DNA of 64,000 bases. It comes from Eledone cirrhosa (Eukaryota). Both the position numbers and the translations under genes were made by a program. The stretch is taken from NCBI GenBank assembly GCA_964016885.1, contig OZ024743.1, forward strand, positions 329,344,001-329,408,000, in the 5' to 3' direction. Below, piece after piece: positions 6,226 through 64,000 of this stretch (the stretch's first letter is position 1; every line of letters begins with the position of its first letter). Under the pieces are notes generated by a model. That model saw nothing but the letters and a program-made list of their open reading frames with translations, did not search any database and was not told the origin of the DNA.

Positions 6226-6512
6226 TAGGAAACATTGATGTATAATTAACAAAGAAATCATTTAAACAGTCAGTATGGGTGATAGTGAGAGGGGAGAGAA
6301 GAGATAGAGGGAGGGGAGAGAAGGGATAGTGGGAGGGGAGAGAAGAGATAGTGGGGGGGAGTGAAGGAATAGTGGGAGGGAGTGACGGGATAGTGGGAGG
6401 GGAGAGAAGAGATAGTGGGAGCAGATAGATGTACTTTTCTCCCGCTGGTATATAACAATGAAGTAAAAACCAGTAGGTTAGAATTTACATCATTTTATTG
6501 ATTACATAATCA

Positions 6513-6568
6513 CTATTATACGTATTTCGACTGAAACTTATGTAACAATTACGAGTTCATCAAATAGC
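6513..6568 (-). ncRNA. Degenerate type-I hammerhead motif (core UUGAUGA)
   Basis: Minus strand: ctat TTGATGA ...stem II... GAAA TACGTA TA atag, with a palindromic helix III and AATAAA downstream. Confidence 0.5.
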
Positions 6569-8007
6569 TATTACATGAACAGAATATGACATAATCCGAA
6601 CTTGTTATCAAGAATGTGTTATGTATGTAAATTAGTATCTCCAGTTTAGTCAAATCAATAAAATAAATTGTGTTTGTAAGCAGAGTCTCCATGGACAGTT
6701 CCACATGGTATCACAGGGTATCACAGGATATTCAGTCATTGAAAAAATACCAATACTGGTTTTGCTGGTCTCTGATTTTTGTCGAGGAAGATATTCTGTG
6801 TAAAGATAGTGTAACACACACACACACGCACACACACACATATATATATATATATACACAATACATACATATACACACACACGCGCACACACACACACAC
6901 ACACACACACACACACACACACACACACACACACACACACACACACACACACACACGCACACACACACACACACACACACACACACACACACACACACAC
7001 ATATATATATATATAATTATATAATTACATAAACGGAGAAAGTTATTAGCGATACTCCGACCAATTTCCAACTCACTCAACAAACATTAGGAAATACCGG
7101 AGTATATTCCCAATTAAACGTTCTGGGTGCTAACTATATTGTATTGTGTGGATAATTAGGTGTATTATTTTATATGAGATATATTAAAAATCTCATTCCC
7201 CAAACGATCGTTTCATTATAAGAACATGGTGGGGAAATTATACCAAGTTATGTAGAAGCTTGTGTAAGATCAATGGATATTTCTCTCTTTCTCTCTTACT
7301 GCTTCCCCGTTCTCTCTGTTTCTCTCACCTTCTTTCGCCCCCTCTGTCAGTTACACTTTCTCTCGACTGACCTCTTCCTCGCACTTCCACTCACTCACTC
7401 TCTGTTTCTCCCCTTCTCACTTCCTCCCGTTCGTTAGTAGTGGGGTTCCTTCTTTCTCACACCTCATTCACGGCGGATGGTCTGTTTTCTGACCGCTCAT
7501 GAAATTCACCCAGCTTACGCTGACCGGATAACCATCATGTTGCTTGCTGTTTTCCTACCTTCGGTTTGCTTTCCTTCTATGTTGTTTACTTGTCTCACTC
7601 GCTTTACGCGATTCACTTGTCCCAATAGCTTATTTTAGTTATTGCTCGCACCAACCTGAGGTATCTAATTTTTAATGCGATGAAATACCAATGATGGTTG
7701 GCAAATCACTGATGAGGGACTAATTTTATAATATGTAACCCATGTGCAACCACGCAGTATTCCTCTTTCTTCCCATGCTTTTCATATATATATATATATA
7801 TATATATATATATATATATATATATATATAGTTATATATATAGTTATATATATATATATATATATATATATATATAGATATATATATATATATATATATA
7901 TATATATATATCTATATATATATATATATATATATATATATATATATATATATATATATATAATAGCAACAACAACTGTATCAATTACGCCCTTCAGATC
8001 ACGTAGC

Positions 8008-8260
8008 TAAGGGGTTAGAGGTCGGATTCATAATCTTTCGATTCTTGAAACGGGCAGTACGTTGTATCCTTGAGCAGGACACTTTATTTCGTGTTGTTCC
8101 CTTGGACAACATCGGTGGTGTGGAGAGGGAAGACAGGTAGGTACTGGCTACTGCTGGTCTTCTGCAAAATCACCCTGTCTGGGCTTGTGCCTCGGAGGGG
8201 AACTTTCTCGGTTCAAATTCCATGGTCATTCATGACCAAAAGGGGTCATTTCTTTTTACC
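8008..8260 (+). mobile_element. tRNA-type SINE (ccttgagcaggacacttt central motif)
   Basis: B-box-like ttcgattc followed by a central motif shared with 12950-13020, 34662-34902, 40090-40270 and 42410-42760. Confidence 0.6.
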
Positions 8261-8448
8261 CGTTTATATATTATGAGAAAAGGGTAATGAACCACTTCAG
8301 TCACAAATGATCATGGGATTTACACCTAGGAAGTCCCCCTCTGAGGCAAATGTCTGGAGAAAGCAGTCACCTATGTGTGTGTGTGTATATACACACACAC
8401 ACACACACACACATATATATATATATATATATATATATATATATATAT

Positions 8449-62301: not shown

Positions 62302-62522
62302 TAAATAAATATCCTTGTTTGTACTGTCAACCATGTTATTCTTCACTTTTTTATTACTCCAACATATATTTACATAGGAATACAAGCGAAGTCATAAAAT
62401 CGTCACCATCGTAAACCTCTTGTTGAGTCACACAGCACCGTATGCTTAAACTGTCCATGATAAGTAGTTTTCACAGACTCTTATCGGATTACCTTTAACG
62501 ATTTATTGATATATATATATAT

Positions 62523-63432
62523 ACTATGATATTAAATAAATGGAAACTATATTTATAAAACCATATTTATTCTAATATATATATTTCAAGGGTACCAAAA
62601 CTTTGGTACGCTTTCATCAGATAAAATACAAAGTTTGTTTTATAAATGTTGACATAACCAAGAAAAGATACCTTAACGGTTCAAGTTTTTCTTGACTATC
62701 CAAGAAAAACTTGAACCGTTAAGTAGAAGGGGGTGTTTAATTTGTTGGAAATCCGACAAATATAAATATAAGTGTTTATAACTGATCCCTCATAACTCAT
62801 TTGAACAAATATCTATAACATGATATACCCATCTATTTATTTATTTATTTATCTACTTATAAACGAATGAAAAATATTATATTATAAACAAATTTTAAAC
62901 AATTAATATAAATACACATAATATTAAGATATATATTTACATATAAACATATGTAATTGTCCGAATATATTTCCCTCAAATTAACGTTATATGAGTTTTT
63001 TTTATTCATCTTCGGTCTTTTCCTTCTTCTCTCTCTCTCTCTCCCCCTCTCTCTCTCTCTCTTTCTCTCTCTCTCTCTCTCTCTCTCTCTCTCTCTCTCT
63101 CTCTCTCCTCTCTCTCTCTCTCACTATTTTGTCCTTCTTCTCTTCTCTGTTCTTTCTCTCCATAGTCGTTTAAATAAACGGTTGTTTTTCAATTATTTAC
63201 ATATTCATTTGCATATTCACCCATAAGTTTGAAAAATCCCTAATACAATTCCACTATCCAGAGAATATCCAACTCATAAGGTATGATTTTCCTGGGTATG
63301 TCTCAATTTATAAAACAAATTTTGTATTTTATCTGAAGAAAGCGTACTAAAGTCATTTGGTACCCTTGAAATATATATAATAAAATAAATATGGTTTTAT
63401 AAATATAGTTTCCATTTATTTAATATCATTGT
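62523..63432. mobile_element. Family A composite with outward-facing inverted pLTRs, each with an HHR
   Basis: HHRs at 62568-62628(-) and 63325-63387(+). Hairpin at 62672-62723. TA flanks. Confidence 0.85.
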
Positions 63433-63527
63433 ATATATATATATATATATGAAAAACAAGATGGCGTAGGACAGATGGCGTAGGACAGAACAAAGGAGAG
63501 GCACAAAAACAAAGAAAAGAATCCCCA

Positions 63528-63570
63528 GTCACTGAAGAGGTCACATAATGTGTGACGAAAGAACTTTGAC
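63528..63570 (+). ncRNA. Minimal type-I hammerhead in a solo pLTR related to the 36641-38268 element
   Basis: gtca CTGAAGA G GTCACA taatg TGTGAC GAAA GAAC TT tgac. The insert at 63450-63722 ends atgaccctcccaaagcataacaata, like 38245-38268. Confidence 0.8.
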
Positions 63571-64000
63571 AATATATGAACAATCGTTTGGTTATGGAAC
63601 CAACCAACCAACCGGAAATTTATAAATTCTTAAATTTATAAATTTAATTTATAATAAATTGGAGTGAAAGCACTGGTGCGTGTGTTTCTTATTGGCAACA
63701 TGACCCTCCCAAAGCATAACAATATATATATATATATATATATATATATATATATATAATAAGGAGTTGACGGATTCCAGCATATTTATCAATGCCAGGT
63801 ACCGGTTGTATCTCAGTGTACTCCATGGTCAATATAAGATACATTCCCAGAGTATACACATAGTTATTTGCTTCAACACTAGACAATGTTATGTTCGTTT
63901 AAAGTTAACAAGTTTTACAGACAGATTTCGTTTCTGTTTTTTTTTCTTTTTAATTCAAGAAAGAAGACAAGAAAGAAGGCAGCTAATACATAAATAAATA

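Follow-up and report, generated by a model that had tools for sequence, protein, structure and literature searches.

The 64,000-nucleotide stretch of Eledone cirrhosa DNA analysed here (the window) contains islands between TA microsatellite runs that carry hammerhead-ribozyme motifs, which raises the question of what these islands are and how they were inserted. A sequence-only reading had counted about 30 type-I motifs from roughly 15 families, and this is borne out by the 34 motifs in 18 families now recognised. A structural type-I scan that permits a long helix II, a palindromic helix III, the U3-A8 variant and an additional or mispaired base at the helix II foot gave 21 matches (20 with a score of at least 16), to which 13 degenerate or variant copies were added by hand. 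Sixty global and 60 block-wise dinucleotide shuffles gave a mean of 0.18–0.20 matches and a maximum of 2, and reversed and complemented controls gave 0, which places the motif density above chance (21 against about 0.2 in dinucleotide-shuffled sequence). Two stricter scans recovered 5 and 7 motifs and missed the majority. An Rfam search at E≤1 has no hammerhead model among the matches listed (150 of 151), and its matches in the window were set aside as microRNA-like noise over microsatellites.

Helix covariation within families, which the sequence-only reading had called for, is present in helix II of families A and A2. The alignment of 48 distinct A/A2 copies, the only copies on which covariation statistics were computed, has 92.9% of its cells paired, with double changes at 8 of 9 pairs of helix II and none in helix I. 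On three of the measures none of 500 shuffles reached the observed covariation; on the remaining two, 105 and 421 did. Predicted monomer folds are weak (z from +0.1 to −2.9 for 7 motifs). The window motifs are confirmed as genuine type-I hammerheads with a core closed by helices I–III, and they are predicted to cleave. The proposed density of about one ribozyme per 2 kb holds in the window (1 per 1.7 kb by the hand list) but not genome-wide, where the rate is about 1 per 8 kb, based on 77 matches of the same scan in a 590-kb genome sample (shuffles, 1–4). This extrapolates to a load of about 4x10^5 predicted hammerheads (estimate range 2.3–5.7x10^5). The window is richer than average, and only 4 of 59 sample blocks equal its motif density. 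The features are collected in Table 1.

Table 1. Hammerhead islands and associated features, in window positions (a dot marks features without a single strand)
Feature	Position	Strand	Details
Family N degenerate hammerhead (U3.G8), single copy seen	6500..6575	-	
3' half of hammerhead element, kin to sampled families 21/36	7016..7300	-	GAAA and palindrome, without first core half; outside the 34
Family S end	7590..7783	+	Non-coding tandem unit, CUGANGA in covarying three-way junction incompatible with a hammerhead; outside the 34
Family G island	12409..12863	-	Hammerhead 12486-12565
Family A, 5'-truncated pLTR of putative Hydra-type Penelope	14416..14662	+	Hammerhead 14462-14527, ends at site 2
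Family C candidate retrozyme (~534-bp unit), inverted partial-tandem insertion	14767..16294	.	Hammerheads 15022(-), 15560(-), 16153(+); left arm to site 2, right arm to site 1
Family F hairpin insertion	16359..16730	.	Two U3-A8 hammerheads, 16468(-) and 16547(+)
Family A copy	16813..16950	-	First core base mutated
Family H candidate retrozyme (~430-bp unit)	17080..17476	+	Hammerhead 17305; another 3' end 17697-17795(-)
Family Q end	17945..18080	-	Hammerhead cut short within helix I; paired 3' halves form a hairpin at 32407-32544
Family B pLTR fragment	18314..18549	-	Hammerhead 18412-18449
Family I island	19556..19755	+	Long-helix-II hammerhead 19591-19701; clusters with family L
Family P, 5'-truncated putative Hydra-type Penelope	19820..21941	-	GIY-YIG frame 20910-21941; U4A hammerhead near 19930-19980
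Further family P pieces	43532-43659, 45715-45839		
Family D candidate retrozyme (432-bp unit)	23506..24384	+	Hammerheads 23641-23683, 24073-24115; short inverted arm 23506-23610
Family A subfamily end	25082..25230	-	Hammerhead 25122-25186, ends at site 1
Family E candidate retrozyme (591-bp unit, U3-A8)	27641..29050	.	Two units and part on - strand; inverted arm 28882-29050
Family O hairpin of two hammerhead 3' halves	29076..29280	.	Second copy 45913-46140
Broken Neptune-type Penelope fragment	29330..31141	-	Coding 29655-31141; family B hammerhead 29386 without cleavage-site strand
Neptune-type GIY-YIG fragment, then family B pLTR	31386..32392	+	GIY-YIG part 31386-31772; hammerhead 32267-32302
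Family J island	32604..32800	-	Hammerhead 32646-32719
Family M2, 5'-truncated Penelope	36832..38265	+	CX4CxxC linker, GIY-YIG frame 36832-37761, hammerhead 38023
Family C inverted insertion	42858..43236	.	Hammerhead 43121 partly deleted
Family A2 inverted pLTR pair	43671..44125	.	Hammerheads 43712-43782(-), 43916-43986(+)
Family K inverted island	59397..59800	.	Hammerhead 59574-59666(+)
Family L, inverted pair of 5'-truncated putative Hydra-type ends	59809..62355	.	GIY-YIG 60840-61298(-), 61252-61476(+); hammerheads near 59960 (G5A) and 62192-62302
Two family A ends	62529..63431	.	Hammerheads 62620(-), 63325-63387(+)
Family M pLTR fragment	63451..63722	+	Hammerhead 63528-63570

In seven of the 20 families tested (A, A2, B, L, M, M2 and P), the sequence continues into Penelope coding sequence with no intervening TA tract, and the reading of their islands as 5'-truncated copies of protein-coding Penelope elements is supported. 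These coding-linked families carry Hydra- and Neptune-type motifs and feature traits of EN+ Penelope elements, namely partial tandems, an inverted 5'-truncated copy and a tail at one end. The five GIY-YIG elements noted earlier as motif-bearing (the coding parts of families P and M2, of the family L pair at 60840-61476, and of the two Neptune-type fragments) do carry one, with defects: one has a U4A core, one lacks the cleavage-site strand and two have helix mismatches. Family A reads through to a reverse transcriptase (RT) frame at 6 loci. At one of these, L093, a stop-free frame of 741 aa features RWR, DKT, CxCX5C, CxxC and CxH, with two RT motif residues altered, and G000 contains many frames of 742–751 aa. 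The L093 frame has all the Hydra-clade features listed by Craig et al. 2021 (RWR for RWK), among them no Cys pair inside the GIY-YIG domain, and the P and L fragments contain the Hydra-type linker, CxxC and CxH. By these motifs, families A, P and L are assigned as putatively Hydra-type; the RT and GIY-YIG labels on the frames are motif readings. The Penelope proteins have no significant match in Pfam, NCBIfam or the PDB, and their 31 homologues comprise 30 unnamed proteins and one with PF00078. A fixed 239-bp non-autonomous unit was considered for family A and is ruled out by the variable 5' ends and by the read-through into the frame in the flanks. Most family A copies showed no coding link before the read-through copies emerged, and a link missing from a few copies is therefore weak evidence.

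Families C, D, E and H are head-to-tail units of about 430–590 bp that hold 10 of the 34 window motifs. The longest ATG frames are 24 aa in C, 68 aa in D and 75 aa in E, no similarity to Penelope proteins was found in any of the four, and the period of family H (~430 bp) is derived from coordinates only. As non-coding tandem units with one type-I hammerhead each, they are classed, from sequence features, as likely non-LTR retrozymes. Families C, D and E are spread over many contigs as short arrays with fixed ends adjoining TA. Family E copies are 99–100% identical genome-wide, and contigs of 621 and 620 nt matching it in two runs fit a cyclic unit, which tandem DNA and circular RNA would yield alike. 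Apparent fixed 5' ends among the family E matches were put down to a search margin effect, and a coding link of family D (L126), a truncated copy adjoining another element, was left out of the count.

Non-coding units are borne out in families C, D, E and H, but the claim that most islands are non-autonomous Penelope derivatives is not supported. Coding-linked motifs lead among those assigned: 16 against 10 in the window (8 in neither class, among them those of families F, G, J, K and N), and 25 against 17 of the 77 sample motifs (35 in neither class), or 25 against 7 when an array of 11 is counted once. This lead and the weakness of few-copy absence make it unlikely that dedicated non-autonomous derivatives, mobilised in trans, account for the majority of hammerhead islands. 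Such an origin would account for the four non-coding window families and the one further non-coding unit family of the sample, and for families F and O, nearly all of whose copies are short hairpins and which have coding links in 0 of 33 and 0 of 51 copies; the 35 unassigned sample motifs could also be such derivatives. The related claim that the motifs are Penelope-type and TA-associated is upheld, and in the 590 kb they far outnumber coding fragments (77 to 19). The 21 window families cover 4.1% of the sample and Penelope coding sequence 2.4%, so protein-led annotation undercounts the hammerhead islands.

With a TA tract defined as 12 nt or more, 26 of the 34 motifs lie within 200 bp of one, compared with 34% of window positions; the earlier wording of "nearly all" within about 200 bp is thus reduced to "most". 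The motifs farther away are mainly inner copies of inverted or tandem insertions. In 53 of 66 cases TA is present within 250 nt on the downstream side of the motif, and in 26 of 66 on the upstream side. A recognised family end adjoins 27 of the 54 TA clusters in the window and no more; in the sample, with only the 21 window families counted, 99 of 466 clusters lie next to a family end. The 5' ends of copies adjoin TA tracts too. One insertion can be compared with its empty site, a family A copy (L026) that lies within a short pre-existing TA run and has short TA flanks. The TA tracts could themselves be largely element-made, with the RT slipping on a UA spot and adding TA at an AT-rich nick so that seeding exceeds targeting. 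Tracts positioned precisely at UA-bearing ends, the sample clusters adjoining family ends, and the CT run that ends family C site 2, which is expanded in 18 ends and resembles reiterative copying at initiation, would fit this, but the L026 insertion, the tracts at 5' ends and the reported (TA)n targeting of Hydra elements (Craig et al. 2021, PMC8557442, accessible text) argue against it, and we consider it doubtful as the main source of the tracts. Seeding and targeting are mutually compatible and do not exclude each other.

Two fixed 3' ends, site 1 and site 2, are present in every family, and this extends to the putative retrozymes. Inverted insertions in 8 families (including C, D and E) have one arm per site in 60 of 62 cases and the same site twice in 0, after removal of 3 of 65 rows as artefacts of the head-to-tail joint of family E; a few of these pairs are local duplicates. 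At 14 of 16 ends, element and target share 3 nt or more of alternating TA, compared with 10.6% of random breakpoints, or 21% with the best phase; the junctions were positioned by eye, and the A, C and D loci are best matches to a query. The 5' ends are scattered, with 4 of 129 lying at most 3 nt from the cleavage site where about 2.2 are expected. Inversion joints show overlaps of at least 2 nt in 26 of 59 cases, inserts in 22 and blunt junctions in 11; some of these rows are artefactual and the counts were not used as evidence. It is improbable that the inverted insertions reflect self-priming (fold-back) on palindromes, perhaps with an antisense template, and the tandems unequal crossing-over minisatellites instead of retrotransposition: self-priming was proposed by Arkhipova 2013, the palindromic centre of family F is nearly fixed, local tandem amplification is discussed in the available text of Li 2026, and local amplification is suggested by an 11-copy array in L049 and by a 54-bp satellite in L131, but fold-back of a single cDNA alone leaves unexplained why the two outer ends are never alike and map to two fixed sites, the joints in A, C, D and E vary in position on both arms, and C, D and E are dispersed as TA-adjoining short arrays.

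The two classes of island, the two fixed 3' ends with one arm per end, the TA identity and the scattered 5' ends are observed directly. The islands are probably 3'-end fragments of many coding Penelope-like elements (PLEs) together with non-coding tandem retrozyme units, both likely put into TA repeats by a Penelope RT-endonuclease that primes from both cut strands. The GIY-YIG nuclease would cut both strands of a TA run, and each 3'-OH would anneal, over 3–7 bases, to a UA-rich spot at an internal start site, of which there would be two, both downstream of the hammerhead. Both cDNAs would usually end early and then join head to head. We propose that a position 50–280 nt upstream of the two starts accounts for the frequent copying of the hammerhead. 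The template may be an uncleaved multimer or a religated circle, and most hammerhead cleavage is predicted to take place in dimers or with the aid of a protein, trimming tandem transcripts to unit length. The two-ended footprint fits twin priming by the Penelope enzyme on uncleaved or circular RNA, with the retrozymes using the enzyme in trans. On the other side, TA identity might stem from slippage after insertion, and the accessible text of Frangieh 2024 reports neither homology between start site and target nor a strand difference in start site. Among the eight autonomous-family stretches compared, which represent a minority of the Penelope families of the genome, no sequence match links a non-coding unit to a partner element.

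We regard as tentative, and as falling short of an even chance, a bolder combination: that this is the largest hammerhead load found on record (~4x10^5 against 120,000 in axolotl), that one RNA with two start sites, each base-paired to one strand of a cut TA repeat, is a general Penelope mechanism, that retrozymes hijack it via the same two-site signal, that the enzyme seeds microsatellites by slipping at initiation, that the U4A hammerhead is active, and that family S is perhaps a new CUGANGA-containing fold. Set against the criteria of Eckert 2023, family S was rejected as a type-II or non-circularly permuted hammerhead, as GAAA does not follow its helix II partner strand and U16.1 is missing from the window copy. 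A generic type-II scan shows no enrichment (5 matches against 4–11 in shuffles).

These results touch two open questions, the origin of inverted one-tailed Penelope insertions and the movement of animal retrozymes. Thousands of young copies yield a sharp rule of one arm per start site with TA pairing at each, which is testable with an existing in vitro assay. Family E provides a ready retrozyme substrate with its near-identical copies, and the genome is a large natural library of hammerhead variants. If true, the two-site hijack by retrozymes would be direct genomic evidence for how they move in animals. In the literature covered, which largely excludes subscription journals and supplements, we found no report of the one-arm-per-site rule, of TA microhomology at Penelope start sites or of a U4A family; the two fixed 3' ends, the one arm per site and the TA identity at ends are features that we did not find in print. 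Ribozymes are not mentioned in the accessible text of the octopus repeat paper.

Earlier publications already describe Penelope hammerheads, (TA)n targeting and retrozymes, and Cervera and De la Pena 2014 (PMC4209133, in the text available) proposed that solo motifs are truncated protein-coding elements. The motifs resemble the minimal hammerheads of metazoan PLEs described there in being type I with a palindromic helix III, an extra base at the helix II foot and a U3-A8 variant, and in having many families per genome, mostly solo motifs, and opposite-strand pairs 100–700 bp apart. They differ in number (the estimate given above against ~2,000–9,000 per genome), in a helix II of up to 100 nt, and in one family with a fixed U4A core. 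The coding-linked families resemble the Hydra and Neptune EN+ PLEs of Craig et al. 2021 (as far as its accessible text goes) in having pLTRs and a GIY-YIG domain at the C-terminus, in forming partial tandems and an inverted copy truncated at its 5' end, in bearing a tail at a single end, in inserting into (TA)n and in carrying the hammerhead near the 3' end, and the Hydra motifs listed there occur in families A, P and L. The tails are 55–160 nt here and 30–40 in those elements, and the one-arm-per-site rule and TA identity at ends were not found in the accessible part of that paper. The non-coding units resemble the non-LTR retrozymes of Cervera and De la Pena 2020 (PMC7229834) and Li et al. 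2026 (10.64898/2026.07.22.740005), which in the available texts are non-coding tandem units a few hundred bp long, each containing a single type-I hammerhead, occur as monomers to multimers and have Penelope machinery proposed for them; family D shares the U.U helix II foot of an axolotl retrozyme family. Li et al. 2026 report that 8 of 9 retrozyme dimers failed to cleave. Unlike the retrozymes in these texts, the units here feature the full Penelope insertion footprint of two start sites, inverted arms and TA target, and no pLTR homology was found for them among the 8 coding-family stretches. A close mechanistic system is Poseidon of Anolis carolinensis, for which in vitro studies by Frangieh et al. 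2024 (PMC11167929, in the part available) determined that two internal RT start sites define the tail, that both strands are cut and extended, and that hammerhead cleavage is unneeded for insertion. The two start sites and the AT-rich target are shared with Poseidon, whereas its start sites lie within the ORF and lack target homology; those of family A lie in the 5' untranslated part, and TA is shared with the target at most of the ends scored here. The hammerhead motifs and their host elements are of known kinds, unusually abundant and with a useful mechanistic footprint.

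Hammerhead ribozyme motifs in this region are real, very abundant and composed of two known kinds of element. An Rfam search of the window (G000:C4:329344001-329408000, where G000 is the 3.0-Gb Eledone cirrhosa genome) gave no hammerhead among the matches listed (150 of 151), so a custom type-I scan was written for this analysis. Strict versions of the scan found 5 and 7 motifs. A relaxed version found 21 by also admitting U3-A8, a palindromic helix III, and a helix II that is long or has an added or mismatched base at its foot. In 120 dinucleotide shuffles the same relaxed scan averaged 0.18-0.20 motifs and never exceeded 2; the reversed or complemented sequence gave none. 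With 13 degenerate or variant copies joined by hand the total is 34 motifs, of which 26 have a TA tract no more than 200 bp away vs 34% of positions, and these form 18 families, lettered here with our own labels. Helix covariation, whose absence would have counted against the sequence-only reading, is present in families A and A2, where 48 distinct copies feature a nearly invariant core and a covarying helix II with double changes in 8 of 9 pairs and 92.9% pairing. On three measures none of 500 shuffles reached this covariation; on the two further measures, which tally pairs or types, it was not beyond the shuffles. In helix I of these copies, variation is confined to one side. Self-complementarity of segment 15.1-16.1 occurs in 37 of 55 clusters, although the scan itself favors it.

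The genome was sampled as 59 evenly spaced 10-kb blocks of placed sequence. The relaxed scan found 77 motifs in these blocks vs 1-4 in shuffles, and 52 of the 77 are within 200 bp of TA vs 29% of positions. When an 11-copy array is omitted, TA lies within 250 nt downstream of 53 of 66 motifs and upstream of 26. The unit of this array, at sampled locus L049, is 310 bp long and includes a compact type-I hammerhead; the array has a TA tract at its end. Extrapolated from the 59 blocks, the sampled rate of 1.3 motifs per 10 kb gives an estimate of about 3.8x10^5 motifs in the genome (2.3-5.7x10^5 by block bootstrap). The window has 3.1 per 10 kb, a density found in 4 of the 59 blocks. The window has 77 TA tracts of at least 12 nt beside numerous other simple repeats, among them a 77-bp minisatellite of 52 copies and a long GTG/CCA inverted trinucleotide block. 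It also holds broken RT and endonuclease fragments that we take to be a LINE-like non-LTR retrotransposon; one of them terminates at a TA tract after a short trinucleotide run. A decayed coding repeat of ~2.3 kb, possibly a DNA transposon, has no hammerheads.

Coordinates of individual features in the window and at sampled loci (L numbers) elsewhere in the genome
Feature	Location	Strand	Remark
Family P U4A hammerhead	window 19930-19980	-
Family P U4A hammerhead	window 45760-45810	+
Family S unit	window 7590-7783; L003, L035, L063, L106, L122, L137, L160	+ (window)
Family O hairpins	window 29076-29280, 45913-46140
Family C second end	window 14767-14790, 42851-42875; L152-L176
Inverted island	window 12127-12390
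Minisatellite and GTG/CCA block	window 1-4030 and 51948-55187
LINE-like fragments	window 5560-6210, 8450-11350, 22100-23500		TA-abutting fragment at 8450
Decayed coding repeat	window 47400-49720	-
11-copy array	L049 245-3387
54-bp satellite	L131 1-1131

The first kind of element is the truncated Penelope end. Copies of family A have fixed 3' ends and variable 5' ends, and the sequence continues into a coding frame at several loci. At sampled locus L093 this is a stop-free 741-aa RT and endonuclease frame, one of a group with many 742-751 aa frames in the genome, and its RWR, DKT, CxCX5C, CxxC and CxH motifs match those given for Hydra elements by Craig 2021 (PMC8557442), which describes this clade as inserting into (TA)n and carrying hammerheads. 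Families P and L have endonuclease motifs in common with the family A frame; B and M2 feature a cysteine pair inside GIY-YIG, as in Neptune-type enzymes. Because database searches with Penelope-type proteins returned no name, the RT and GIY-YIG labels are those that we take from recognized motifs. A coding link without a TA break was found in 7 of the 20 families tested (A, A2, B, L, M, M2 and P). Five GIY-YIG fragments had been credited with a hammerhead, and a motif does lie downstream of all five, but three or four of the motifs are imperfect. In family P (14 copies listed), A replaces U4 in all 9 copies that keep the first core half, one of which has a further change; position 7 is variable and a 5-bp helix III is possible. 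Family P is a candidate natural hammerhead core variant.

The second kind consists of non-coding units. Many contigs have head-to-tail arrays of family C (unit about 534 bp), D (432 bp) or E (591 bp); these three have no ATG frame above 75 aa and no similarity to Penelope proteins. Family H has a repeat period of about 430 bp. Family E, with a U3-A8 core, is very young, since its copies are 99-100% identical. By their sequence, C, D, E and H fit the description of non-LTR retrozymes; a search for their possible descent from a pLTR gave no sequence match to eight stretches of coding-linked families. Family S, apart from these four, is likewise non-coding and young (best matches 98-99% identical), with tandem units of about 530-645 bp. 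Its conserved CUGANGA lies in a three-way junction where 5 pairs covary, GAAA is upstream, and the structure fits no permutation of the hammerhead. Also apart from the four are the abundant family O hairpins, in which two hammerhead 3' halves are combined; almost all of them are cut off inside helix II, and they are open to confusion with MITEs; three longer copies (L033, L157 and L175) suggest a U3-A8 core. At L131, about 20 copies of a 54-bp satellite derive from the family F hammerhead 5' half and are followed by a normal F end.

The sequence-only reading held that most hammerhead islands are non-autonomous. This is unsupported because the tally favors coding-linked motifs, 16 vs 10 non-coding in the window (8 of 34 unassigned) and 25 vs 17 in the sample (11 of the 17 from one array; 35 of 77 unassigned), although the unassigned motifs leave room for it. 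In the window 27 of 54 TA clusters, and in the sample 99 of 466, adjoin an end of one of the 21 window families.

The well-sampled families each have two 3' ends that border on TA and are separated by 55-160 nt. Inverted pairs gave 65 rows in eight families, of which 3 were dropped as artefacts of the head-to-tail joint of E. The remaining 62, some of them local duplicates, have one arm per site in 60 cases, one end elsewhere in 2 and both arms at the same site in none; the A, C and D loci are best matches to a query, which fixes one arm and leaves the partner free. Where the continuation is known, 14 of 16 ends, with junctions placed by eye, match the target over 3 nt or more of alternating TA, vs 10.6% of random breakpoints, or 21% with the best phase. 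The 5' ends show no clustering around the cleavage site: 4 of 129 fall no more than 3 nt from it, vs about 2.2 expected. A TA-flanked inverted island in the window also has two fixed ends, with no hammerhead in the part seen.

The Penelope protein studied by Frangieh et al. (2024, PMC11167929) cleaves both strands of AT-rich DNA and extends them. It starts RT at two internal RNA sites, which set the tail, and in vitro does not need hammerhead cleavage. In the present elements each cut target strand may pair for a short time with a UA spot located at one or other of the two start sites of a single RNA, after which both cDNAs would end early and be joined head to head. Hammerheads would be over-represented because they sit just upstream of the start sites. 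More-than-unit copies with an intact ribozyme, together with the scattered 5' ends, point to a template that is circular or was left uncleaved. The footprint of retrozymes C, D and E is the same as that of the coding families, which suggests that they use the Penelope enzyme in trans. Against TA pairing, the start site described in the same study has neither homology to the target nor strand bias. The TA identity at the ends could instead be a product of slippage, as suggested by family C, where the CT run between the second end and the TA tract is often expanded, as if the enzyme stuttered at initiation; the comparison of filled and empty sites covers one insertion. Self-priming, by which Arkhipova 2013 reads inverted structures, also counts against the two-site mechanism, as does the lack of cleavage in most retrozyme dimers assayed by Li 2026.

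Hammerhead counts reported by Cervera 2014 (PMC4209133) for schistosome, coelacanth, frog and coral are in the thousands, and the published axolotl count is about 120,000. Cervera 2014 also reported the U3-A8 variant, motif pairs on opposite strands, and minimal hammerheads that stand alone as remnants of truncated Penelope elements. The strict two-site rule, the TA pairing and the U4A family were not found in the literature within the coverage searched. Insertion into (TA)n, inverted copies, a tail on one side and non-autonomous Penelope elements are already on record (Craig 2021, PMC8557442; Arkhipova 2013), as are de novo, very short 5'-truncated insertions into microsatellites in Chlamydomonas. 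The value of the present data is in their scale and in a footprint that renders Penelope and retrozyme mobilization testable. Li 2026 (10.64898/2026.07.22.740005) argues that retrozymes act as non-autonomous partners of Penelope elements.
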